A stretch of 64,000 bases of DNA from a virus: the IMG/VR virus record IMGVR_UViG_3300032308_002092, positions 64,001 through 128,000 of that record; one strand, written 5' to 3'. Both the position numbers and the translations under genes were made by a program. This document shows positions 29,880 to 44,036 of this stretch, piece by piece; positions within the stretch are counted from its first letter, which is position 1, and the number at the start of each line of letters is the position of its first letter. Below the pieces are notes generated by a model that did not search any database, had not been told where the DNA came from, and worked only from the letters and a program-made list of their open reading frames with translations.

Positions 29880-31183
29880 GGAGCGTCCTTCTTATTATCT
29901 CGTCTGTTATTAGTTTTGCTGCCTCTTTGTGTATCACAGAGTTGTCGCGTGGCACAGTGGTTACCCTATCTATGGACCCACTGGAACTCAATAGCAACAC
30001 ATTCACCTGATCTCCATTGGAGCTTAGTTGTATTACTTTAGCGTAATGGTTTCCGTAGCTGCAGTAAACAAACGGAGAATCTCCATAGCCTTCGCACAAC
30101 CAGAAGTGCCAGTCGTCGCGAAGAAGAGAATTAGGAGGCATAGACACGTCAGGTTTGGTCTTAGGACGAGTGAACACTATTGTGTCTTCACCGTCTAGTC
30201 CTTTGATTGTCTTAATCGATGAATTTGCCATCTTTTATACAATGCCCCCTGAAGTAGTAGCCTTGTTTATCTAGGCACTCTTTTCTGTCTTGATCGATAC
30301 ACGACTTCACCATAAATAGAAACATCACAGAAACTAAGATCGTCAGCGCCAAGCTGTATGCAAACCTTGTCACGTAATTGTCCTTATCCATAGCCTACTC
30401 TTGTTGTGCTTTATTGAGATGGTCGGCAGCTGCTCTAGTCCACTCCACGTAGATTTGATCAGGGTACAGTCTGCCGAACCACGTTATGTCGCAGCCCGGA
30501 GTCCAGAAGTACCAGTTCCAGGTAGGGTGGTCGTTTAGCGCGTTGTTCCTAGCTGCTTTAGATCTGTTTGCTTCTTCTTGTAGCTTTTGCAGATCACCTT
30601 TTAGGTAGTAAAGTACTGCGTCTTCCATGCCTCTTATTGTTTCAAAGGCTTTGAGAACGTGTTTCTCCCATAGTTTACCAACGCCGTGTTGTCTATTGAG
30701 CATCAGCGTAGCATAAACTAAGTTCAACTGGTAGTGCTTGTAGACTGTAAGTGCCTCAATCAAAGCAAGTGGGCCTCTCAACCAATTGAGCAAGAAGTAC
30801 CATATGATGCGCCAGCCAGCAAAGTGCATCTTTAGCTTAAGGGTTGGGATACAGGCTATCAGCTGAGCAAACCCCAGTACTCCCAGCTTGTTTCGGCCAT
30901 CTGTGGACGACGGTGTTATCAGCCCACCAGTTTTAACTACGTATCTAAGCATAAGGATGTGGTCGATGGTTGACCCGCCAAGCATAGCACCTAGGAACAT
31001 GTCCCTGCTAGATGAGTTTGGGTAATCCTTTTGCGCTATTGCCGCTTCTGGGTTGCGCCAGACTCTGCCGTCTCGGTCAATGCACTGAGACACGTATAGA
31101 GATGCTTCGTAGTCGCCAACATGAGAAAACATCCCTGCGTATAGGGTGCTGTCGCCATGTACTTCTTTGTATTTTGGGTTCAT
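29872..31183 (-). CDS. Hypothetical proteins (29872..30231; 30395..31183, 262 aa)
   Basis: Clean ORFs; AGGAGG SD before 31183. Confidence 0.6.
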
Positions 31184-31252
31184 ATATCCTCCTACTCAGG
31201 GTTATACCGAGAGGGTGGGGTGGTGTGGGCGCGCCGTAGCAGTGTCAGGTGT

Positions 31253-31312
31253 AGACTCGTCAGTCGCGTATACAACGCGAGACCAAGAGCGTGGCTACTC
31301 TTGGTTTCGTCT
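31253..31312 (-). ncRNA. Type II hammerhead ribozyme HH-a
   Basis: AGAC-GAAA-CCAAGAG(8)CUCUUGG-UC/-UCGCGU(5)ACGCGA-CUGACGA-GUCU; GUC cleavage between 31281 and 31280. Confidence 0.92.
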
Positions 31313-31819
31313 TTAGCCAACCAAAGCCCTAAGGTGCTCTGGGATTGAGGAGAGGTCGAGTTGCTTTGCTTTGTTTTGGCGAGGGGTCTTAGCTGGCTTG
31401 CTAGCTACCATCTCAGCCCTAACATTAGCAATGAAGTTTTTCACTTCAACGATCTTAGTTTCTTCTGCGCCTGAAGCAATAAGATTCTTGAGTACCTCAG
31501 TTGCTTGCTTGATCTGTGGGTTAGTACGGCTACCAGGGTTTTTAGCTTCATACTTGCCGCCGCCGTTGATCTGAGGTGCCTTATTGAACCAGTTAGCTAC
31601 GACGCTAGAAGCGTAAGACCTGAGTGCTTTGTCGTCATCTAGCTTACCAGCCGAGCGCTGTGCCAAGACGACTTCGCCAGAAATGAAGCCTTCAAGCATA
31701 AGGCTAACGATCTCACGACGTTGCTCTTCAGTTACGTACGAAGAAATGGGGGCACTACTATTAAAACTAGAACCAAGGACCTGCTTAGTATACGTTACGA
31801 CCGCTTCATTTTGTTTCAT
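31313..31819 (-). CDS. Ribozyme-flanked paralog A (168 aa, unknown function)
   Basis: Shares RSY..S...NW..K.P..NGG.K...KNPGSR and C-terminal DLS.[IL]PEHL..LVG with 40126 and 43512. Confidence 0.85.
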   Translation of the reverse strand: MKQNEAVVTYTKQVLGSSFNSSAPISSYVTEEQRREIVSLMLEGFISGEVVLAQRSAGKLDDDKALRSYASSVVANWFNKAPQINGGGKYEAKNPGSRTNPQIKQATEVLKNLIASGAEETKIVEVKNFIANVRAEMVASKPAKTPRQNKAKQLDLSSIPEHLRALVG

Positions 31820-31843
31820 GGTAAAACTCCTATATAGAAACAT

Positions 31844-31900
31844 TGACTCATCAGTGCTGGAACCTACCAGCAGATACCCTTGGTATCGGGTATTTCGTCA
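31844..31900 (-). ncRNA. Type II hammerhead ribozyme HH-b
   Basis: UGAC-GAAA-UACCC(8)GGGUA-UC/-UGCUGG(6)CCAGCA-CUGAUGA-GUCA; AUC cleavage between 31873 and 31872. Confidence 0.92.
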
Positions 31901-33936
31901 TTAGTCTATTGCTGCGTAGTCATCTGGGAAGAAGGTTTCTTCTTCCATCTGACGGCTATTGAAGTCTAGCTGCTCATACACATCGTCTTCATAGTCGGAC
32001 AAATAGATATAATCTTGGTTGATTTGCACCGTGTTCACGACCATACCATCGGGCATAACCACGGTTGAATTAGGATCTTGTTGCGAAAGAATCTTAATGA
32101 GTTCTGAAACCAGCATATCAAACCTCCTTTATTTACTTGTGCATATTGATTCGGGAATCATGACCTGAGTGTTAGTCTAGTTCCATCTGGCATCGTCGTA
32201 TAGCTTACGTCGGATGGTAAGGCACTGGTCACTCTAGTGAAGGTTTCTAGTTGCTTGCCTTTACCATCGAACGATCGCGCGCAGCCTGTGCCATCACACA
32301 AGATGAATGAGTCTTGGTTGTAAGTCTGAGCCATGCTCTTCATCAAGTCAAACAACGACCAGCCTATGGTGTTAGGCGAACCACTTACAAGCCAAACATT
32401 CTCCATCTGATCTTTGTAAGATCCTCTGACGTACGTAGTTTTAAACCCATTCATCCTAATGAAGAAGCCTAGCTGCTCATGATCCTGCATATTTCTAATG
32501 TCGTCTTTGTCGCTTTTGTCTGCGGAGATCAGAGCGAAGATAGTATCTAAATCTAGTTTCATGTTAACCCCACTTTCGTTTGTTTGCTAAAACACAAAGT
32601 ACACCAAAGAATAAAGATATTAAGAACTTGAAAAAAGCATACTCAAGATTGCCGTTAATCAAATCAAACCATCCAAATACCTGTAGGAAGATACTTACGA
32701 TAAACAGCGCGATGGCTAAGTTCACTTGCCTCTCCTTACGATCAGGAGGATCGCGGTAATTATTTTCTTAAAAAAGTCAATCATCTTTCTCTCCTTCTTT
32801 TTCTGGGTGAAATTTATCGAGCACCTTAGCGAAGATCATCAGCAGCAGTACTGTTACTGCGAGCCCACCGATTATTGATATCGGTATCGCGACTCCAATA
32901 GCTATAACGTAAAGCAATATACTCATTAGCTAACTTCCTCGCTTTCCTCGTAGATGTACCAGTCATTGGGCTTAAGACTAGCTGTCTTCTGCTCATACTC
33001 GTGTTTGCCGTATGAATACGCGAAGGCTCTGCCGTTCCAAACTATGAACGGAGCTGGGTGATCTTTGTGTGAGATCTTAGCTCCCTTGAGGGCCTCAATC
33101 AATGCTTCTTCTAGAGTCATGATCAGCTCCAATCGTTAGGGTCTTTGTTTTTGCCCTTGACTTCTTCGTAGAAGATAATACAAAGCAATCCCACCATGAA
33201 GATGCCACCAAAGAAACCCGCTATAGAAATTGCAGCCATGAATCCTGTTAATGCTGAGTCCACGATATTACTCTCCTAGTATTTGTTGCTCTATTTGTTG
33301 CGTCATATATTTGTCTAACGTGAACTGAATAACATGGTTGTGAACATCTTTTACCTTTAGATAAACCGAATGAGGTGTTAGATCGCCTCTTGAATTCAGA
33401 TAGCAGTTCGCTACTAGCTTAAAGGAATAAGGGGTTTTTGGATGTTTTATGGTCTTAGATACTGTGGTGTACGACTTACCTTTTCGCTTAGCACACTCTT
33501 TAACAGCATAATGGTAGTGAGAGATAAGGGCGTCTAGGGTAAATTCGCTGCCTTCTACTGGACCCAGGCTTAGGTCTATGATTGTTCTATGCTCTCCAGT
33601 AACCGTAAATAAACACATGTTGCTAACCCCTACTCGTTATCGTTGAATAGTATTGGTTTCGGATACTCACTTAAGGTCTTGTGTCTCTGAGTAGAGAAGG
33701 TGTGACATAGAGTCCATCACCACAAGAGTACTCTGCTTGCCATACTTAGACACCATGTCTGCCTTGAGGGAGCGAAACTCAGCTCTACACTTCTCTCGCT
33801 CTGCGACTTCTCTGAAGTATTGTCTACCCTCGGCGGCCTCGTAGTAAGAGAGATCAGCTATGGATACTATAAATTTTTTGATTAGCTCGCAATTGTAGTT
33901 CATGCAACCTCCAATAAGATATTGGATCGGGATCAC
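31901..33936 (-). CDS. Run of small hypothetical early genes (31901..32116, 32158..32562, 32926..33132, 33268..33618, 33667..~33903 and several <60-aa TM peptides)
   Basis: Co-oriented ORFs, several preceded by the CCGA motif and SD. Confidence 0.55.
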
Positions 33937-34163
33937 CTATCGGATGGGTTGCCGTGGCCGTTATCGCATAAGTCTTCTCCACAGCCAGCGCCACCGCCAC
34001 ACCCATCACCATAACCGTTGCCATCGCCATAGCCATCACCACTAGGGCTGCAATTACTTAAACCACAGCCATAACCATCGCCGCTTTTCTTAATATAGTT
34101 GTCACCATTGGGTCTACCGTAATGGTAACCGTAGCTAAAACCATCTATTTCTAGAGATTCCAC
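33933..34163 (-). CDS. Gly/Asp-rich family member 10
   Basis: LEIDGFS ... PSDR. Confidence 0.82.
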   Translation of the reverse strand: MESLEIDGFSYGYHYGRPNGDNYIKKSGDGYGCGLSNCSPSGDGYGDGNGYGDGCGGGAGCGEDLCDNGHGNPSDR

Positions 34164-34169
34164 GATAGC

Positions 34170-34388
34170 TCACCAATCAGATGGGTAGTGATCGAACCGA
34201 TCTTCGGTGCCACTACCGCAACCATCACCATACTCATCGCTATGTCCATCACCTCTGCCATAACCGTCGCCGTCAGCAGTGCCACCACTTAAACCCCAAC
34301 CATCACCATCGCTGTAAGTATGACTATCGCCGTTGGCCATGCCGTAACGATCGCCGTAACCAAAAGCATCTATTTTTAGAGATTTCAT
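34170..34388 (-). CDS. Gly/Asp-rich family member 11
   Basis: LKIDAFG ... PSDW. Confidence 0.85.
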   Translation of the reverse strand: MKSLKIDAFGYGDRYGMANGDSHTYSDGDGWGLSGGTADGDGYGRGDGHSDEYGDGCGSGTEDRFDHYPSDW

Positions 34389-34408
34389 GGTTTATTCTCA
34401 GTCTGAGA

Positions 34409-34744
34409 TTAAAGCCACTTATTCAAGTCAGCTTTCATCACAAAGATATCCTTACCGAAGATCGTACCAGCTTCGTTTAGCACAGTCTCAGCCTGAGGAC
34501 CTTCGACGCACAGCTGGCCGAGACCCTTGGTCGTACCCCATCGGTGGATGTTGTAGGCGTTGTCAAGCCTGATTCTCTCGCTGGAGAGGCGAGTAACGAA
34601 GCCGATGAATACCCAACCGCGATCCATGACTGCGATGACTAGATCGCCGTTCTCATAGTCAAGCTTAGGCTGAGGTGCGCCTCGCAAAGACTCCTCAACC
34701 TGACTGTTGATTACATAATTACCGAATAACTTACTCTTAGCCAT
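34409..34744 (-). CDS. DUF6948-like phage protein
   Basis: VMDRGWVFIG...LDNAYNIHRWGTTKGLGQL..EGP, recognised from memory; own CCGATA motif and AAGGAGG SD. Confidence 0.7.
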   Translation of the reverse strand: MAKSKLFGNYVINSQVEESLRGAPQPKLDYENGDLVIAVMDRGWVFIGFVTRLSSERIRLDNAYNIHRWGTTKGLGQLCVEGPQAETVLNEAGTIFGKDIFVMKADLNKWL

Positions 34745-34881
34745 AATAAACCTCCTTTGTTTCTGTCTATATTTATATCGGAAATGATACTCTGTGGACC
34801 GTTACAATCCTCTTTCGCTGTTATACATCAGAAATACAATCGCAACAGTGAAACCAAGTATAAGTAGCGCAAATACACTCA

Positions 34882-35097
34882 TTAAGAAATCTCGCTTGCT
34901 TCTACGTATTGGCTGAAGATTTCTGGGTATCTTTGTACGTAACCGTTGTCTTCTAGGAAGTAGTACAGAGCTACACCAGGTGGTACTTCGTCATCGAAGT
35001 TGCTCCGCCAAGCGTAGTCTTCGAAGTCACTCGTAGTTAATCCCGTGACCTTAACACACAGCTTATCTACTTTGTTCATGTAAGACTTGAAAGACAT
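34882..35097 (-). CDS. Hypothetical protein
   Basis: 71-aa ORF. Confidence 0.55.
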   Translation of the reverse strand: MSFKSYMNKVDKLCVKVTGLTTSDFEDYAWRSNFDDEVPPGVALYYFLEDNGYVQRYPEIFSQYVEASEIS

Positions 35098-35155
35098 ACA
35101 AACCCCTTATTGAAGACACCCCATCGTTGGGATATATAATCTGGTTTCGGGATTC

Positions 35156-35350
35156 TCACCAGTCTGATAGATCATCGTAGCCATAACAGTCACCGTAGCT
35201 CTCTCCATCACCATTTCCATAGCCGTATCCGCTACCACTACCGTCGTATTCTGTAATGATGATGATATTAGGGCCTTCAGAGCCGCTGTCGCCGTCACCG
35301 TTATAGTGGCCGTCACCACAACCCCAGCCATCTATTTCTAGCTTGTCCAT
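35156..35350 (-). CDS. Gly/Asp-rich family member 12
   Basis: LEIDGWG ... LSDW. Confidence 0.82.
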   Translation of the reverse strand: MDKLEIDGWGCGDGHYNGDGDSGSEGPNIIIITEYDGSGSGYGYGNGDGESYGDCYGYDDLSDW

Positions 35351-35356
35351 TGCTCT

Positions 35357-35596
35357 TCACTTATCTGACGGGCCGTGATGGCCCTTGCCACTGCCATCTC
35401 CAACAACGAGATCTTGCCCCAGACAATTTAGATCATAACCATAGCCATCGCCATTAGGGAGGCTGTCTCCGTAGCCACAGCCATACCTCTCTCCATCGTA
35501 GCCATAACCATAGTTCCCATGGACACCACTGCCATCGCCGCAGAAGTAACCGTGAAAGCGTCCATAACCTAAGCCGTCTATGTCTAGCTTGTCCAT
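35357..35596 (-). CDS. Gly/Asp-rich family member 13
   Basis: LDIDGLG ... PSDK. Confidence 0.85.
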   Translation of the reverse strand: MDKLDIDGLGYGRFHGYFCGDGSGVHGNYGYGYDGERYGCGYGDSLPNGDGYGYDLNCLGQDLVVGDGSGKGHHGPSDK

Positions 35597-35599
35597 GGT

Positions 35600-35896
35600 T
35601 TATGCTTTACGCTTCTTCTTTTGGCCGTCTTTGATGGCCTGAACCTCTGCTTGGTCAAGCGGGACACCGTGGCGGTACCAGCTATCACCCCACACCGCGC
35701 CGTCTTCCCAGTAGGTTATAGCAGGGCTACCCTCACGATGTAACCTACCTTGGCAATACCAATACTCGGTGTCTACCTTGCCGTCTTCGCTATAGTAGAC
35801 AATGGCAGGGCCATCCACACGATGTGGAACACCCTCCTCCAGGTATCGCTCGGACTCTACCTTACCGTTTTCGTAGTGTTTCTTAACGCACTCCAT
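35600..35896 (-). CDS. MORN-variant / HRxDGPA repeat protein
   Basis: YENGKVESERY..G.PHRVDGPAIVYY and LHREGSPAITYW repeats. Confidence 0.75.
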   Translation of the reverse strand: MECVKKHYENGKVESERYLEEGVPHRVDGPAIVYYSEDGKVDTEYWYCQGRLHREGSPAITYWEDGAVWGDSWYRHGVPLDQAEVQAIKDGQKKKRKA

Positions 35897-35908
35897 AAAT
35901 CTCCTTGA

Positions 35909-36148
35909 TTACCAATCTGAAGGCATGTCATGATCATCACCTGAACCCCAGCCGTTGCCGTGGTTGTAGGACGTATCACCATAGCCAACACCATCGCGAT
36001 AAATTGGGTGATAGCCACGACCATGGAGATCACTGCCACCATTGCCCCAGCCATCCCCACTCGCCATGGAGTATTCACCTTCTCCCTCGCCGTTACCATC
36101 CCACCAACAGTCTGGTGAGCCGTCGCCATCTATGTCTAGCTTTTCCAT
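35909..36148 (-). CDS. Gly/Asp-rich family member 14
   Basis: LDIDGDG ... PSDW. Confidence 0.85.
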   Translation of the reverse strand: MEKLDIDGDGSPDCWWDGNGEGEGEYSMASGDGWGNGGSDLHGRGYHPIYRDGVGYGDTSYNHGNGWGSGDDHDMPSDW

Positions 36149-36155
36149 AAGTTAG

Positions 36156-36422
36156 TTACCAATCTGAGGGTTCTAAATCTTCCCCATCACCAGCACCATC
36201 TCCACCGGTGTCGCCACCAGAACCGTCGCAATAACCATCACCGCCGAGGGTGGTATAACCGCTGCCTCTTCCGTCGCCGGTTCCAGTGCCGCAGTCGCCG
36301 TCGCCATAGCGATCGTCTGGTATAGAGGGGCTATAGCAACCTATACCGCCGTCCCCATTAGGGGACGTTCTGTCTACACCACAACCAAATCCATCCACAG
36401 CGAGCTTGCTTTCTAATATCAC
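36156..36422 (-). CDS. Gly/Asp-rich family member 15
   Basis: LAVDGFG ... PSDW. Confidence 0.82.
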   Translation of the reverse strand: MILESKLAVDGFGCGVDRTSPNGDGGIGCYSPSIPDDRYGDGDCGTGTGDGRGSGYTTLGGDGYCDGSGGDTGGDGAGDGEDLEPSDW

Positions 36423-36434
36423 TTAATATGTCCT

Positions 36435-36668
36435 CTACCAGTCAGAAGGGTCACCCTCAGGCTGTATCTCATGGAATTGGATGAATGTCATAGAATCGGA
36501 TTTTGTGAGTTCGTGTTCGCCGTAGCCATAGCCGTCACCATTTGGTTTGGTTCTGCCTATGAAGCTATCTGGCGTTTTTACGCCCTCTCCAAAGCCGTCG
36601 CCATGTATCCTACCGTATTGACCATAGCCGTAGCCAACTCCGTCTACGATCGTCTCGCCTATCTTCAT
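36435..36668 (-). CDS. Gly/Asp-rich family member 16
   Basis: TIVDGVG ... GDPSDW. Confidence 0.82.
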   Translation of the reverse strand: MKIGETIVDGVGYGYGQYGRIHGDGFGEGVKTPDSFIGRTKPNGDGYGYGEHELTKSDSMTFIQFHEIQPEGDPSDW

Positions 36669-37134
36669 GGGTCCTCATATCCATTAAAGCTGCCCGCCAA
36701 GAAAAGCCGCCCGCCAAGAACGCTATTGAGCTTAACGTAGTTAAACTCTTCTTTTGAGGTTCGCTTAAGTGTTTCAAGCATAAATAGCTTCTTGGCTTCC
36801 TCTGATTCCATCACTTTGATACCATCTACCCAGATGCTGCATTCCGGACTACATATCTCTTCATACCCAGCCTTATATCCAGCAGCGGACACCTCTTCTA
36901 AAGTGAGAGGCTGGTCTTTGATGGCCTCATACATTTCTCGCACCTGTTCATACGACACTTCTGTTTTGCGATGAGGACCCCCAGTTTGTTGAGAGCCGTT
37001 CTCACTACCTCCTTGACCATTATGGGAAACCATTAGGCCCATCACTATAAACGCCGCCGCCGCACCCATTACTTACCCTCCTCTTTCTTACACAACACCT
37101 ATCTTCATAGGTCCTCATATCCATTAAAGCTGCC
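36658..37134. repeat. 37-bp direct repeat (36658..36694 and 37098..37134) flanking ORF 36665..37069
   Basis: cctatcttcatRggtcctcatatccattaaagctgcc, one mismatch. Confidence 0.9.
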
Positions 37135-37405
37135 ACCATTTACGTGGGGTGCGTGGGACACTTGCATGAGGATGCGGCTTTTCTATCTCAAGGTGCCGAA
37201 TGGCTACAACATCAAATAGCTCTATCCCATTCGTGTTGCGACCCTCTTTATCAACGTAAACACAGGAAGCAACCCCCGGAGCAAACAGCACCATTAAATA
37301 AAACGCCGGTGACCAATCAGCGCGTTCGTTGAATTCAACAAACGAACCCACTAGTCCGTTTCTAAGTGTGATCTCGTCCCAAGCCTTTAGTTTTGTAATA
37401 TCCAT
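36665..37405 (-). CDS. Two hypothetical proteins (36665..37069 with N-terminal hydrophobic segment; 37124..37405)
   Basis: GGAGG SDs. Confidence 0.6.
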
Positions 37406-37445
37406 AATGGCCTCCTTTTTATAGTAATTTTAATACACTAATCAT

Positions 37446-37755
37446 TCCCAAACTTCAATCTCACCAGTCAGCTCAACTACCTGAACCGGCTCACCTTAGG
37501 TATCTCAAATACAGAAACATCCTCGTCCCTTAGATTTTCAGTCTTGCCTATGGGAATTCTTATCTCATACAAAACCCCATCGCTACCTGTCACGCGAGTG
37601 TATCCACGTTCTTTCAAGCTTGAGAGCTGCTCCCTCGTGAGGTCCTCAAAGATTTCTATGGGCACAGGTCCTTTGTCTGTCAAGAACCCTTCTTCAATTA
37701 ACCGGTCAATTACTTTAGACATATTACAAACTACTCCCAAACTTCAATCTCACCA
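37446..37755. repeat. 21-bp direct repeat (37446..37466 and 37735..37755) flanking ORF 37477..~37722
   Basis: tcccaaacttcaatctcacca exact in both copies. Confidence 0.85.
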
Positions 37756-37951
37756 CTCCGAAGGGGTCTCCCTTAGTATCCCTGTCTCTTGTACCTGCAA
37801 AATGGGCACCGAACAACAGTCTAACATTACCTTGAGAACCGAAGTCCTCATCAAAGACTGGCAGGCTTCGTCCCATGCCTCACACTCCAACTACATACAG
37901 AACGAAGATCCCTATCAGGATGGCAGCCCAAACCCCAATTAGTATCTCCAT
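37750..37951 (-). pseudogene. Possible decayed 17th Gly/Asp-family gene
   Basis: Ends CCT TCG GAG TGG TGA (PSEW*), preceded by GGA GAC one base out of frame; no intact frame. Confidence 0.35.
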
Positions 37952-37964
37952 AGTCCCTATCCCC

Positions 37965-38440
37965 TTAAAGCAGGCTCAGTATGAAGCCTAGCACCACCAA
38001 GAACACCCAAAGCACCACAGAGTACAAAACAACAGTCAAGTACCATAGCCACAAAGCGGTCATCCCGACTATCTCTCTGAAGCCGGGGATAGACATCAAA
38101 CCGCATACTGCAGCTATAGCCAACACCAGTACGACCACCCTTGCCAGTAAGCGCCGCATAACCCCTCCCCATATCGTGATTCATATACCTTCGGAATATA
38201 ACTCAAGGGTCTGATGCCCACTTCCCACCCCTACTTAAACTTACAGCTCAAACCAGCTTTATTCAGGCCGTTATATCTATAGCAAATCACTTCGCTATTC
38301 TCTAGTCTGTACACACCAAAACCAACCGCCTTAGCTTCGCTAAAGCCATACTCACCGTCAACACCTCCATCAACGTTAGGCTCAGATACCCTAAAAGTAC
38401 ATCCGCTCAATACAATCAATCCAACCACTAGCACCTTCAT
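37965..38440 (-). CDS. Small membrane protein (37965..38159) and small lipoprotein (38231..38440, LSGC)
   Basis: Hydrophobic segments / lipobox; GGAGG SDs. Confidence 0.6.
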
Positions 38441-39470
38441 AAACCCCTCCCCACAATTACCCTACAACTATCCATTATCAATTCGGAATCCCATACCTTA
38501 CCTTCCCCAAACCCTGGGTGGAAGATATAGTAACCGCCGTAACTAACTTATAAACCCCTAAAATAACCTCTTATAACAACCTATACCCACCTATACCCAG
38601 TTATAACTACCTACTAATCCCTATACCCTCAAATACCCTAATCCCCTACGTAACTACTACTATTAGATACACTTAAGTGCCAAAACCTACCGTAACTAAC
38701 ACGTACGTATCACCTTAACCCCATACCATTCCCAACCAACCACCTATACCAGTTAGTAGCACGAAAGGGATAGGGAGTGGACTGGTAGAGTTATAGTGAT
38801 AATGATCCTCACCATTACTATAGGAAAGACATAAAAACTATAGTGATTTAACTAGCCTAGGGCGAGCCTATAGGCAGGTTGTTTCCGCCCACAACTATCC
38901 CTACTCTCGCAACAACATCTCTCACTTGTGGCCACGCCGCGGTAACCTATAGGGTTACAAATCACCACGGTTTTGCCCACCTATAGGTTTACAGGTCGGG
39001 TATCCTGCTCCCTCCTACCCTATCCCTACAGATACCTCCCGGGTGGTTTGCGTGTTGTCCTAGGGGTAAATCGGGTGTCGAGGAAATCATTAGGCTTTTT
39101 GGTAGTTGGGTTGGGAATGGTGCTTTCCCCTAGGGGTAAAATGAGATAGGTGGGTGGCTTTGTTGATATTGCTAGAGATTTTAGTTTCGGGATGATAGGA
39201 GTGAGAGAAGTCCTAGGGAGTTTTGCTCGTTTTAGGGCTTCGGGTGTGGGGCGTAGCAGTGTCAGGTGGTTTGGTGGGGTTGTTGGGCTACGGGGTGGGA
39301 TAATGATATCAGTGAGTTACGGGTGTTTTGGTGGCGCGAGTTGGTGCGCTTAGGGCTGGGGGTTTATATACACTTTTATTTTGTGGTCTTGAGTTGTAGT
39401 TGGGAGAGTAGGATAAGTAGGGTGCGAATTCAAGTTGTTTGGGGGTGGCTATGATAAGCCCGTAGCCCAA
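38441..39470. other. Largest non-coding region, with C-rich to G-rich skew switch; candidate replication origin
   Basis: C/A-rich 38441-38760, G/T-rich 39060-39460; repeated cctata, cgtaacta and cctaggggtaaa. Confidence 0.5.
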
Positions 39471-40012
39471 TCAGACTATATACTCTTCGTCTAGTGGCTC
39501 ATCGTATAGGTGAGCTATGGAGTGCCATGGTCCTGGGACTGTGAAGAGGTCTAAGTTGCCAGAGCGTATAGCGTGAGCCTTAGCCATAGCTTCGTCCATG
39601 TCAGAGTGAGAGGAAACTACCCACGTCACTAGGTTGTGGACTTCGGAATCCACCTTCACGATAGTGTCGAAAGTAGAGTGGTCGTACATCACGAAGTACC
39701 TAATAGGTTGCATAACATAGTCTCCTTACTTAATGGACAAGTTAATGAAGATGAGAGTCATTATCAACAAGAATATAGCCGCTGTGCCTGGATCCATCAC
39801 TCTGTCTCTTCCACGGTTATGGTGTAGGACTTGTCGTACTGGTCCTTCACTATGATGGTGCGCTTAGGTGACCTAAAGCTACCGTCTTCGTTTAAGTCCA
39901 TCTTTATCTCTACGTTCCTGAGCTTTATCTCAGTCGCCTTAGGTATGGCCGCAGTGATCACATGAGTGATATAGTCGCAGTATGCTAATCTCAACCCGCT
40001 TGACTTAAACAT
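39471..40012 (-). CDS. Small hypothetical proteins (39471..39713; 39797..40012)
   Basis: AAGGAG SDs. Confidence 0.6.
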
Positions 40013-40050
40013 AGTCGTTCCTCCTTATATAGGGGATGGTATCGGAAACC

Positions 40051-40113
40051 GGACTCATCAGCATGGCTATCAGCCATGGACCTAGGATCTCGAGCGAGTC
40101 CTAGGTTTCGTCC
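40051..40113 (-). ncRNA. Type II hammerhead ribozyme HH-c
   Basis: GGAC-GAAA-CCUAGGA...UCCUAGG-UC/-CAUGGCU(3)AGCCAUG-CUGAUGA-GUCC; GUC cleavage between 40079 and 40078. Confidence 0.92.
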
Positions 40114-40125
40114 TCGGTTACGGAC

Positions 40126-40572
40126 TTATCCCACCAGGGATCTCAAGTGCTCGGGTAGTGCGGAGAGGTCCACAGTCTTGGCAGCAGACTTAGGCTGTGG
40201 GCGGTTAGCTTCAATGAACGCTTCGAGCTCAGCTGTAACTTCAGATCCCTTAGCGATCAGAGCCGCTTTGAGAGCTAGAGCTTGCTTGAACTCTGGGCTA
40301 CCAGATCGGCTACCAGGGTTCTTGACTTCGTGCTTGACCCCACCGTTGAGGGCAGGTGACTTACGGAGCCAGTTGCTGAGCAGACCTGAAGCGTAGCTTC
40401 GCGCCTTAGCTTCGCTGTACTCCTTGCTCAAGCTGATCTCTCCGTTCATGAGTCCCGCTACGAGCATACCGATTGCTTCCTTGCGTTGCTCACTAGTTAG
40501 GGTGACTGCTTCCGCAGTTACTCCAACGATTGACTGTACGATCTCTACGACTGCCTTTGATTGTGACTTCAT
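40126..40572 (-). CDS. Ribozyme-flanked paralog B (148 aa)
   Basis: RSYASGLLSNWLRKSPALNGGVKHEVKNPGSR; VDLSALPEHLRSLVG. Confidence 0.85.
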   Translation of the reverse strand: MKSQSKAVVEIVQSIVGVTAEAVTLTSEQRKEAIGMLVAGLMNGEISLSKEYSEAKARSYASGLLSNWLRKSPALNGGVKHEVKNPGSRSGSPEFKQALALKAALIAKGSEVTAELEAFIEANRPQPKSAAKTVDLSALPEHLRSLVG

Positions 40573-40590
40573 ATGTAACACTCCTTAATT

Positions 40591-40647
40591 AGACTCATCA
40601 GTGCCAGAACCTACTGGCAGATACCCTTGCTATCGGGTATTTCGTCT
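40591..40647 (-). ncRNA. Type II hammerhead ribozyme HH-d
   Basis: AGAC-GAAA-UACCC(8)GGGUA-UC/-UGCCAG(6)CUGGCA-CUGAUGA-GUCU; AUC cleavage between 40620 and 40619. Confidence 0.92.
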
Positions 40648-40651
40648 TAAG

Positions 40652-40801
40652 TTACCGACAGTAGTGATCGGCGTAGTTGCAGTAGAAGTCATAGACTTCG
40701 TCGTCAGTCCACGAGTCACAAGAGTAGTCTACGTCATCGTTTCCCGCTGCGATCATCTGAGCGAGGATGATGTTCACCGTAGTGCGAAGCGAACCTCTCA
40801 T
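40652..40801 (-). CDS. Unlisted 49-aa acidic peptide (MRGSLRTTVN...DHYCR)
   Basis: AAGGAG SD and CCGATA motif upstream; stop 4 nt before HH-d. Confidence 0.6.
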   Translation of the reverse strand: MRGSLRTTVNIILAQMIAAGNDDVDYSCDSWTDDEVYDFYCNYADHYCR

Positions 40802-40948
40802 ATGAAGCACTCCTTGGTTAATCAACCTTGGTTGGTTGATAGTTATATATGGTATCGGGAAACTGGGGCTGCATCGGATCGTGGGGCCGAGGTGTGGGTT
40901 CGGGTGCTGGGCGTAGCAGTGTCGGGCTTCACGCAGACACCCTCGGTA

Positions 40949-42139
40949 TCACTCCAGACCCTTGCAGGAGCTAGCGTCGTTGCTCTCGTTGGCCTGACAA
41001 GCCACGTACTTCTCGCTGCTTTCCTTGGAGTTAGCCACCGAGATCTCACCTACTACGTTGATGGAGGTGTTGACTACAACTCCGCCCACGATAGCGTACA
41101 CACAGTACAAGACCACTAGTTCGATGCCCATTATAATGCCCCTTATAAACCTTAAAGCCCACTTAAACTGCCATTCTAATAGCTAGAATGGTATTCTAAA
41201 ATCTAGTATGTTATACTTTGCCCTTACCCCGGCAAGTTCTGCTTGTAGTACAAGTCACCCCAGTCGATGTAGAAGTCCTCGACCTTAGCGTGATCCCAAG
41301 CGTCGGACCACAGCTTGATATCCTCGTAGCTATCCATGCTCATCTCCCTGCCAGTCACCAACTTAAAGGCATCGTTCATGAACATATTAGCGTCTACGTA
41401 GTCATGCGAAGCGCACTCATGCTTATGGTTGTGCTTGTTAGCTTCGCATATATCAACCATAGTGGCTAGACCAAGCTCAGCCATCAGTAACTCGGAGAAC
41501 TTTTCTGCTATCTGTTCGTGTAGCTCTACTTCGAAATCCATCGTTCACCCCGGTAAGTTGTCTAGTATAAAGTTAAGCTCTTCTACTACTTCGTCGGAAA
41601 CAGGTTGATCTAGTGCCTCATCAGGTACATCTGGGTAGTATTCCAGCTTGAATTCGTCCCAAGCGAACTGCATTAACTGTCTAAGCGTAAGTTCGTTCAT
41701 TGTCCACCTCTTTCTTCTAAGGCTTGATACACTCGCTTCAGTAGCTCTGTGGGTTCGGTATAGAAATCATCCTTATCTAACTGCACCATATCCAGGTTTA
41801 TCAGCGCCTGACTGAACCTCATATCGGGATAGGTCCTCAAGTAGGTCTCTAGTATCCGTAGTAGCTCCAAGTTAGCATGTAGTCGGACGCTCGTTGGTTG
41901 ACTCATAATAACCTCCTAGTTACATATAGATATAGATTCGGATACGACTATCAGAACCACTCACCCTTTCTTACAATCACCACTCTACTCGCTGTATTGA
42001 CTATCATCGCTCTTCTCCTTCTGCCATCGGAGAAGTATCTCATAGCCTCTTGTAAAGCAGAGAATGAGTGTATAGTCATGAAAGACCGTGCATCAGTTGA
42101 GCCGTGCCAAACCTGAACTTGATACATAATAAACTCCAA
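40949..42139 (-). CDS. Small hypothetical early genes (40949..41131, 41224..41541, 41697..41906, 41951..42139)
   Basis: Co-oriented short ORFs. Confidence 0.5.
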
Positions 42140-42254
42140 TGTGTAAGAGAACTTTGTTATTCTCTTATTAATAATATATAGTTACGGGAATTAAATTCCC
42201 CTGGGCGTAGCAGTGTCAGATAGTGGTATAATACCCTTAGGTTAAGGAGAACAC

Positions 42255-42731
42255 ATGGAAAAGCTAATCAAGCATAGCAACGGGCAGTGGACACTAGTTA
42301 AGGCCAAGGACACTAGTAAGCACGGCAACTTCGGTGGTGGTAACTCCTTTGACGGAGGAGACCAGTATGTCCCCTCTAAAGAGGGTATTGCAGCAAACGC
42401 GGCTAGAGCAGCGGAGCAGAAACGCCTAGAAGCAGAAGCGAGCGCAGTATCGGCTGCACACAAAGATGTAGCCGACAGAGGCGAAGTTCGCCGACGCACC
42501 GAGCCGCCGAAAACCGTAGAAGATCACCCACTACACGGCGAGTTAGTTAATCACTTCAAGAACAAGCATGGGTTGGACCATCACGCTGCGTTTGCTGCGG
42601 CTACTCATGTCATGACTTCGGGCCTCGGCGAAAAGACTCATGAAAGTGACTCAGATAAAGCAGCTACTGGTTCTGGAGCAGCCGAGGCCAAGAAGATCCT
42701 GGCTGGTAAGGTTAAGACCAAGATCTCTTAG
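42255..42731 (+). CDS. Isolated late-type gene, possibly head-internal protein
   Basis: GGTATAAT and AAGGAG upstream; N-terminal MEKLIKHSNGQWTLVKA; Ala/Lys/His-rich. Confidence 0.6.
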   Translation: MEKLIKHSNGQWTLVKAKDTSKHGNFGGGNSFDGGDQYVPSKEGIAANAARAAEQKRLEAEASAVSAAHKDVADRGEVRRRTEPPKTVEDHPLHGELVNHFKNKHGLDHHAAFAAATHVMTSGLGEKTHESDSDKAATGSGAAEAKKILAGKVKTKIS

Positions 42732-42736
42732 TCGTC

Positions 42737-43003
42737 TTATATAAGACCTTGTTCACTCAGTTGCTTCATCAGTGAATCATCATTCTTAGACCCAAAGACT
42801 CTCACTACATCCTCATAATCACATAGTTCATCGGGGTCGTCGTGACATACGAACGCTAGTCCTTCGACTGTCTTCCACACTGAGAACTCATATATGCAGT
42901 GAACTCCTGTCTCTACGTAACCATCAGGTTCAGTGATTGAGCCATCGAACATCTTCCCCGCTTCTAACTCTGCAACAAGTTGATCGACTGTGAACTTACT
43001 CAT
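42737..43003 (-). CDS. Acidic 88-aa protein, paralog of 43080..43346
   Basis: TGVH.IY.F.VW.T.EGL.F.C..DPDE shared. Confidence 0.8.
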   Translation of the reverse strand: MSKFTVDQLVAELEAGKMFDGSITEPDGYVETGVHCIYEFSVWKTVEGLAFVCHDDPDELCDYEDVVRVFGSKNDDSLMKQLSEQGLI

Positions 43004-43020
43004 AGTGACTCCTTAAAGTT

Positions 43021-43080
43021 AGACTCATCAGTGTGACTCTTAGTCACAGACTATCTTCGTTTCGGAAGATAGTTTCGTCT
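43021..43080 (-). ncRNA. Type II hammerhead ribozyme HH-e
   Basis: AGAC-GAAA-CUAUCUUC(6)GAAGAUAG-UC/-UGUGACU(3)AGUCACA-CUGAUGA-GUCU; GUC cleavage between 43049 and 43048. Confidence 0.92.
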
Positions 43081-43346
43081 TATGCGAGACCTACTGCACT
43101 CAGCTGCTGATCAAGAGTGTCGTCTTCCTTATCCTCCTCGAAGAACCGCTTGACATCGTCGTAAGTTAGTATCTCATCGGGGTCTTCAGTGCATATGAAC
43201 CTCAAACCTTCGTCAGTGTCCCACACCTCGAAGTCGTATATGGAGTGAACACCGGTGCTCACGCCTCCGTGTGACAGGAACTCACCTGCAGTTAGTCTAC
43301 CATCGGCGATCGCTTCTTCTAACTCTCTGACTGTGATCTTACTCAT
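43080..43346 (-). CDS. Acidic 88-aa protein, paralog of 42737..43003
   Basis: Shared motif with 42737..43003; GAGGAG SD. Confidence 0.8.
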   Translation of the reverse strand: MSKITVRELEEAIADGRLTAGEFLSHGGVSTGVHSIYDFEVWDTDEGLRFICTEDPDEILTYDDVKRFFEEDKEDDTLDQQLSAVGLA

Positions 43347-43511
43347 GACTTCTCCTCATGTTGTTCACACATTAATAGAATCGGAAAACACACTAATAAA
43401 TATTTAAGTTTTTCAACTCATTTATTTATTAATAATATATAGTTTCGGAAACTATATCCCTGGGCGTAGCAGTGTCAGTGGGTACGGGCACCACGCCCGC
43501 ACCCAACTCAC

Positions 43512-43961
43512 TTAGCCAACCAACTTCTGGAGGTGCTCGGGAAGCGCTGAGATATCCACGGTCTTCTCGGTCTTCACCGGAGCGTTGGCTGCGATGAACA
43601 TCAGGAGCCCAGTAGGAATCTCCTTGCCTTGCTCAGCCAAGTACTTCTTAAGCGCGATCGCTTGCTTGTACTCATTGCTCCCACTTCGTGAGCCTGGGTT
43701 CTTAGCTACGTACTTCACTCCGCCATTCAACTCGGGCGACTTACGTACCCAGTTGTCCAGCAGTCCCACCGAGTAACTCCTCATCTTCTCGGGAGTGTCG
43801 TGCTTAGCCCGAGCACCCGCGCTCATATCAATCTCACCATCAACCAAGCCTTGTGTGATCAGAGTCAAGCACTCTTCTTTCTGCTCCTTGGTCAACTTAA
43901 CTCCGGGAGTAAATCCCTCGATCCCACTCACGATCGCTACGACTGCATCTACTTGCTTCAT
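43512..43961 (-). CDS. Ribozyme-preceded paralog C (149 aa)
   Basis: RSYSVGLLDNWVRKSPELNGGVKYVAKNPGSR; VDISALPEHLQKLVG. Confidence 0.85.
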   Translation of the reverse strand: MKQVDAVVAIVSGIEGFTPGVKLTKEQKEECLTLITQGLVDGEIDMSAGARAKHDTPEKMRSYSVGLLDNWVRKSPELNGGVKYVAKNPGSRSGSNEYKQAIALKKYLAEQGKEIPTGLLMFIAANAPVKTEKTVDISALPEHLQKLVG

Positions 43962-43979
43962 GTAACACTCCTTAAAGTT

Positions 43980-44036
43980 AGACTCATCAGTGCAACCACT
44001 TAGTTGCAGATACCCTTGCTATCGGGTATTTCGTCC
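43980..44036 (-). ncRNA. Type II hammerhead ribozyme HH-f
   Basis: GGAC-GAAA-UACCC(8)GGGUA-UC/-UGCAAC(6)GUUGCA-CUGAUGA-GUCU; AUC cleavage between 44009 and 44008. Confidence 0.92.

Follow-up and report, generated by a model that had tools for sequence, protein, structure and literature searches.

Six type II hammerhead ribozyme motifs lie between genes on the minus strand of a 64,000-nt stretch of viral DNA, and we consider it likely that they are functional and cut the phage transcripts into separate messages, either while the RNA is being made or soon after. The stretch (hereafter the window, to which all coordinates refer) comprises bases 64001-128000 of the 151,207-bp IMG/VR virus record IMGVR_UViG_3300032308_002092, which is estimated to be 91% complete. 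Proteins encoded by the record include a tail sheath, ribonucleotide reductase, HNH endonuclease, NUDIX protein, lysozyme, RNase H and an S-AdoMet lyase-like protein. Based on the tail sheath, ribonucleotide reductase and lysozyme, together with the IMG/VR record itself, we identify the source as an uncultivated tailed phage (a myovirus) of ~151 kb. Between about 45.9 kb and 29 kb every gene is on the minus strand, and the ribozymes are in sense to these genes.

Six hammerheads in one phage genome

The hammerhead core (Rfam clan CL00010) consists of C3 U4 G5 A6 N7 G8 A9, G12 A13 A14, an A15.1-U16.1 pair and H17 (not G). This core is complete in all six elements, here named E1 to E6: positions C3-A9, G12-A14, the A15.1-U16.1 pair and C17 are present and read as CUGA(U/C)GA, GAAA and (A/G)UC. 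The order NGAC-GAAA-(hairpin III)-UC-(hairpin I)-CUGANGA-GUCN is found in 6/6, with a stem II of 4 bp, a stem I of 6-7 bp and a stem III of 5-8 bp. In each case loops cap stems I and III and stem II is open, which is the type II topology. A preliminary description of the window had already listed six intergenic minus-strand elements with this core and topology, and a structure-aware scan of both strands returned the same six (Table 1). Two of its further details are confirmed as well: stem I is different in all six yet perfectly paired, with sequences that match the earlier listing, and C17, when counted along the sequences, falls at the first position of each predicted cut in Table 1, in agreement with all six cut sites given earlier.

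Across the 151,207-bp genome the core pattern has six matches, always on the reverse strand, against none in a backwards control; 100 shuffles of the window gave no match either. If only the interior of each element is shuffled, even a lax two-hairpin layout is obtained in just 6-28 of 20,000 trials. For five of the six elements the minimum free energy structure equals the three-way junction. Whole-genome scans for type I or type III hammerheads, or for type II hammerheads with one core mismatch, gave noise only beyond the six elements, which are the only type II hammerheads in the virus record.

Further evidence is provided by related phages. Syntenic contigs were located via the neighbouring gene family, and three hammerheads from these relatives were joined with the six elements in an alignment of nine sequences and the covariance model R1. 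In this alignment all pair cells are standard (126/126) and 10 of the 14 pairs have changed on both sides; none of 500 shuffles equals the observed values, and slid partners pair in 24-41%. All 11 core positions and the A15.1-U16.1 pair are invariant, and the stems have completely diverged. Since pairing has been kept by two-sided (compensatory) changes in the nine sequences, the six motifs are under selection. R1 scores the six elements at 62-76 bits, against 13.5 bits for the next best match in the whole genome. Type II hammerheads with quite different stems are located at the same gene borders in the syntenic relatives (L135/L136 and L139/L140), and two other loci (L142 and L182) have one hammerhead each, right at the border of a member of the paralog family described below. 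Within the window E2, E4 and E6 are mutually 80-88% identical, compared to 56-61% (DNA) for the genes downstream and 43-56% for the 60 nt upstream, and the differences in stem I among these three are all compensatory.

Similar motifs are seen in many other viral contigs. A scan of IMG/VR with a GAC...GUC pattern matched at least 120 contigs, and single records contain 9, 6 and 5 R1 matches, clustered within a few kilobases. For comparison we used 95 distinct hammerheads, collected mainly by a GAC/GUC search pattern, of which 86 have a GAC/GUC stem II. The consensus of this subclass is A-GGAC...GUCC-A, where the base before stem II is an A in 90% and the base after it in 74%; stem I measures 6-7 bp in 77/81, with a loop of 3-6 nt. 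Most of the hammerheads (75/95) are situated -1 to 13 nt after an open frame of 50+ codons (8.9% for random sites), and a Shine-Dalgarno (SD) sequence plus start codon follow 10-29 nt downstream in 55/95. The six elements fit the consensus of this type II subclass, which is abundant in viral contigs. Tested on the six copies in the window, the subclass escapes routine Rfam annotation.

One other record (G001, of L014; 125.7 kb, linear) contains nine R1 matches at 57-1163 and 121251-125603, i.e. at both contig ends. Should this record be circularly permuted, they form a single dense array of ~6 kb.

Gene borders, paralogs and promoter-like motifs

Five of the six hammerheads adjoin one of three paralogous genes (A, B and C), which share 37-44% protein identity and 56-61% DNA identity. 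Each paralog has a leading hammerhead 10-25 nt ahead of its start (E6 for A, E4 for B and E2 for C); paralog A, for instance, has its ATG 19 nt beyond the end of E6, preceded by the SD sequence AAGGAG. On the other side E1 directly follows the stop of paralog C and E3 begins 12 nt beyond the paralog B stop. In the unit of paralog A the gene is followed by a GC hairpin, promoter-like motifs and an 88-amino-acid (aa) gene, and then by the closing hammerhead E5. The latter lies between two tandem acidic paralogs of 88 aa that are 49% identical, and in its tail and SD it nearly matches E6. The units bounded by ribozymes measure 592, 541 and 960 nt. Overall, the spacings between hammerheads are 960, 2429, 541, 8206 and 592 nt, so several occur in gene gaps at gene-length spacing. 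According to the preliminary description each element starts 0-12 nt after a stop codon; the distances are 0, 0, 12, 4 and 0 nt for E1, E2, E3, E4 and E6 (with E2 directly after the stop of gene 31901-32116), and the first base of E5 is overlapped by the stop before it.

Table 1. Features of the window, with coordinates counted from its first base. Bits refer to covariance model R1 unless otherwise indicated.
Feature	Coordinates	Strand	Details
E1	31253..31312	minus	stem II AGAC/GUCU, III 8 bp, I 6 bp; predicted cut 31281/31280; 63.1 bits
E2	31844..31900	minus	stem II UGAC/GUCA, III 5 bp, I 6 bp; predicted cut 31873/31872; 72.0 bits
E3	40051..40113	minus	stem II GGAC/GUCC, III 7 bp plus extension, I 7 bp; predicted cut 40079/40078; 62.2 bits
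E4	40591..40647	minus	stem II AGAC/GUCU, III 5 bp, I 6 bp; predicted cut 40620/40619; 76.1 bits
E5	43021..43080	minus	stem II AGAC/GUCU, III 8 bp, I 7 bp, GUC site; predicted cut 43049/43048; 68.9 bits
E6	43980..44036	minus	stem II GGAC/GUCU, III 5 bp, I 7 bp, AUC site; predicted cut 44009/44008; 72.9 bits
Paralog A (149 aa)	43512..43961	minus	all-helical uncharacterised family; C-terminus LPEHLxxLVG
Paralog B (148 aa)	40126..40572	minus	ATG at 40572; SD and ATG after E4
Paralog C (168 aa)	31313..31819	minus	ATG at 31819; SD and ATG after E2
88-aa gene	43080..43346	minus	stop overlaps first base of E5
88-aa gene	42737..43003	minus	downstream of E5
GC-rich 10-bp hairpin	43480..43504	minus	right after paralog A stop; no ribozyme at that spot
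S-AdoMet lyase-like gene	32158-32562	minus	PF23780, 32.6 bits (Pfam); just upstream of E2 unit
CTGACACTGCTACG sites	31235-31248, 39252-39265, 40912-40925, 42206-42219, 43465-43478	minus	motif search
CCGWWAC-TATAWA sites	35133-35150, 40026-40045, 40844-40858, 42175-42187, 43436-43448	minus	motif search
CCGWWAC-TATAWA site	38537-38554	plus	motif search
Motif pair CTGACACTGCTACG plus CCGAAAC-TATATA	43436..43478	minus	promoter-like, ahead of AT-rich ~90-nt leader

With 674 homologs at E<=0.001 the paralog family is a large one, marked by the motifs NW.RK.P.LNGG.KY..KNPGSR and, at the C-terminus, LPE.LR.LVG. It has no match in Pfam or PHROG. The AlphaFold model is all-helical (predicted local distance difference test score, pLDDT, of 88.5) and has no match among PDB structures, while the sole match in a viral library is an uncharacterised protein. 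Searches for related loci with single paralogs as query returned nothing; a 30-sequence profile yielded 50 loci, only two of which have a hammerhead (L142 and L182, each at the gene border), and Rfam detected no other ribozyme in 15 of the paralog-family loci. Because most members in other phages lack an adjoining ribozyme, the family is not generally tied to ribozymes, and its link to them holds only in this lineage. Among cultured phages, a megablast of 15 kb gave no match. The closest tail sheath in that group is the one of Myxococcus phage Mx1 (27.6% identity), and a scan of this phage with R1 revealed no hammerhead.

Two sequence motifs recur solely within this minus-strand block of genes. 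The 14-nt motif CTGACACTGCTACG is present in four exact copies and one copy with one mismatch, all on the minus strand and inside the ribozyme region; if up to two mismatches are allowed, there are 8 matches against 0.55 expected. One copy (31235-31248) is found 5 nt after E1 and ahead of gene 30395-31183. The motif may be a phage-specific promoter or regulator site. The second motif, (TTT)CCGWWAC-N0-9-TATAWA, is found 6 times in the whole genome (against 0.32 in shuffles), of which five are on the minus strand at 35-43.5 kb, and at three sites it is located 16-60 nt downstream of CTGACACTGCTACG. The copy at 40026..40045 (CCGATAC...TATATA) lies within the 3' tail of E3 and runs into the SD of gene 39797-40012; the orthologous hammerhead tail in L135 carries CCCGATTC. 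Between 29 and 47 kb there is no enrichment of sigma-70 promoter-like or intrinsic terminator-like sites. We also considered CCGATAVC alone, a sequence from the stem III loop of E2, E4 and E6, as a promoter piece and rejected it (8 matches against 4.0 +/- 2.2 expected).

As to the timing of expression, S-AdoMet lyase-like genes are usually early and lysozyme genes usually late. The S-AdoMet lyase-like gene of the window likely serves an anti-restriction early function and, together with the many tiny genes, it makes early expression of the region plausible. A lysozyme gene is situated near the head of the minus-strand block.

Proposed transcript processing and competing explanations

The proposed processing might proceed as follows. 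Stems III and I are local hairpins and would be able to form during transcription. If the sites are transcribed, the active junction would close only after the final four bases (GUCN) have been transcribed and have paired with the NGAC synthesised about 55 nt before. A cut 3' of C17 would then give an upstream message terminated by the stem III hairpin and a 2',3'-cyclic phosphate. Its downstream counterpart would start with a 5'-OH, the stem I hairpin and CUGAUGAGUCN, to be followed in four of the six cases by a leader of 10-20 nt with a strong ribosome-binding site. Should such cleavage take place in the cell, neighbouring genes would end up on separate RNAs, each with a standard 5' leader and with structured ends that resist exonucleases, with probable effects on message stability and translation.

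Several observations weigh against this reading. The Rfam Hammerhead_II search, which the preliminary description had proposed as a check, produced 0 matches at the gathering score of 37, although this threshold is an annotation criterion and not a biochemical one. Model RF02276 scores E4 at 29.4 bits and E2 at 26.1 bits, whereas E1, E3, E5 and E6 have no match at E<=10, even in searches of 0.6-1 kb. Rfam as a whole, applied at gathering score to the window and the remainder of the genome, gave no match, neither to another ribozyme class nor to a tRNA. Moreover, the minimum free energy structure of E1 is a competing fold, no clear tertiary contact has been identified (the pseudoknot signal, discussed below, being weak), and the promoter-like motifs recur between the ribozymes, such that the substrates may be several shorter transcripts.

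The missing Rfam match at gathering score might be taken as a sign that the elements are non-catalytic, i.e. stabilising or terminator-like hairpins, or decayed relics, with an incidental match to the core. We regard this as extremely improbable: the 11 core positions and the A15.1-U16.1 pair are invariant in nine sequences of which the stems have diverged, the expectation by chance (from the shuffles) is nil, and conservation is higher in the hammerheads than in the adjacent coding DNA.

With respect to tertiary contacts, the signal for the loop I pseudoknot suggested earlier is weak. The short complementarities exist as written (3-4 nt between loop I and the bases 3' of stem II in the six elements), but they are at about the level expected by chance: over the 95 hammerheads the complementarity between loop I and tail is 2.48 nt, against 2.40 +/- 0.06 nt with permuted tails, and the excess corresponds to a z of 1.4 for 12 nt and of 2.2-2.8 for the first 8 nt. 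In type II hammerheads described before, a loop I pseudoknot of 4 or more bp was seen in the majority, though not in all (Perreault 2011, PMC3088659). We infer that the conserved adenines flanking stem II might be a better candidate for a tertiary contact than the pseudoknot. Because no clear contact has been identified, fast cleavage at cellular Mg2+ is not assured.

The preliminary description further proposed self-processing of an early polycistronic RNA. Transcript processing is indeed the most likely reading, but the notion of a single early RNA fares less well, given the intervening promoter-like motifs and the usually late lysozyme. If the motifs are promoters, the ribozymes would cut several shorter units and not one long RNA; in that case the ribozymes after the paralogs would stand at positions expected of terminators.

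It might also be argued that cleavage is not constitutive but conditional, gated for instance by the ribosome that terminates on the stop codon abutting stem II, by ions or by a phage protein, and that the ribozymes adjust how much of the paralogs is made, or when. In 75/95 hammerheads the stop codon is -1 to 13 nt away, so that the 5' strand of stem II would be covered by a terminating ribosome; E1 can also fold in another way, and regulated hammerheads have been raised as a possibility by Perreault et al. (PMC3088659). On the other hand, there is no conserved alternative structure or ligand-binding extension, five of the six elements fold directly into the active junction, and the compactness of phage genomes may alone account for the tight packing. 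Gating of this kind therefore seems unlikely to us.

The arrangement of the units brings up still another option, namely that the RNA between two hammerheads excises itself and that its ends are religated to a circular mRNA, which would be exonuclease-proof and translatable. The GUCN near the 5' end and the NGAC near the 3' end could re-form a hybrid hammerhead that places the 5'-OH beside the cyclic phosphate, after which ligation would occur through the reverse ribozyme reaction or by host RtcB. There are three hammerhead-bounded units (541, 592 and 960 nt), the GAC/GUC of stem II is common to all six elements and the relatives, and circularisation of hammerhead-bounded RNAs is known from viroid-like RNAs and retrozymes (PMC6765202, PMC7761336). 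However, the subclass as a whole has GAC/GUC, mostly GGAC/GUCC, as its consensus (86/95, in a set collected mainly with the GAC/GUC pattern), and for that reason the shared stem II is no special adaptation here. Every segment between ribozymes, including those of 2.4 kb and 8.2 kb, would be equally competent, and neither an RtcB gene nor a gene for an Rnl2-type RNA ligase was found in the phage genome. Two predicted back-splice junctions were absent from metagenome contigs in exact searches. This result is uninformative, because most of the contigs are DNA assemblies and the genome may not be among them. Circularisation via a hybrid hammerhead is possible chemically, but we think it very unlikely that it explains the array; cutting of the transcripts into separate linear messages is the explanation that we prefer.

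Comparison with known systems

Arrays of this kind are already known in phages, and the present locus is a further instance. Perreault et al. (2011, PLoS Comput Biol, PMC3088659), who gave the first description of the type II topology, found clustered hammerheads in prophages and phages that flank one gene or a short block of genes. The flanked genes vary in identity, and the authors proposed that processing turns long phage transcripts into mRNAs of gene length. Patterns are similar here: several sense hammerheads lie between phage genes at single-gene spacing, and the processing that may be inferred is the same. The setting differs from their prophage arrays in that the source is a free environmental myovirus of ~151 kb, and the gene content differs in that three paralogs of the same family each have a leading hammerhead, two of them with a second hammerhead after the stop. 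The locus leaves the knowledge of hammerheads in phages unchanged. The biological role of the many self-cleaving ribozymes of bacteria and phages has been called largely elusive (PMC6765202). The locus is a clean natural example: one design recurs at three paralogs of one gene and has been retained in related phages. It could therefore serve as a test case for asking whether cleavage by the ribozymes determines message stability, insulates translation or produces circles.

Compared to Rfam Hammerhead_II (RF02276, clan CL00010), the elements share the core, the element order, the capped stems I and III and the open stem II. They deviate in stem II, which has 4 bp (NGAC/GUCN) whereas the Rfam consensus has 2 modelled pairs plus a conserved 3' tail, and in the lack of a clear loop I pseudoknot.

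In Desulfovibrio vulgaris three type II hammerheads near phage-like genes cleave in the cell, as determined with cyPhyRNA-seq (Olzog et al. 2021, PMC8782182), which is consistent with the processing proposed here. Type, phage-like gene context and expected fragments (a 5' part of 28-35 nt) are similar in both cases. The Desulfovibrio vulgaris hammerheads are single or paired chromosomal loci for which cleavage was measured, whereas the present six, with predicted cuts, reside in one phage genome.

An analogy can also be drawn with RiboJ, an engineered insulator derived from a satellite-RNA hammerhead. In both, a hammerhead before the ribosome-binding site would strip off the upstream RNA, so that messages share a short structured leader. 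In contrast to RiboJ, the design found here is natural, is of type II and would also shape the 3' end of the upstream message.

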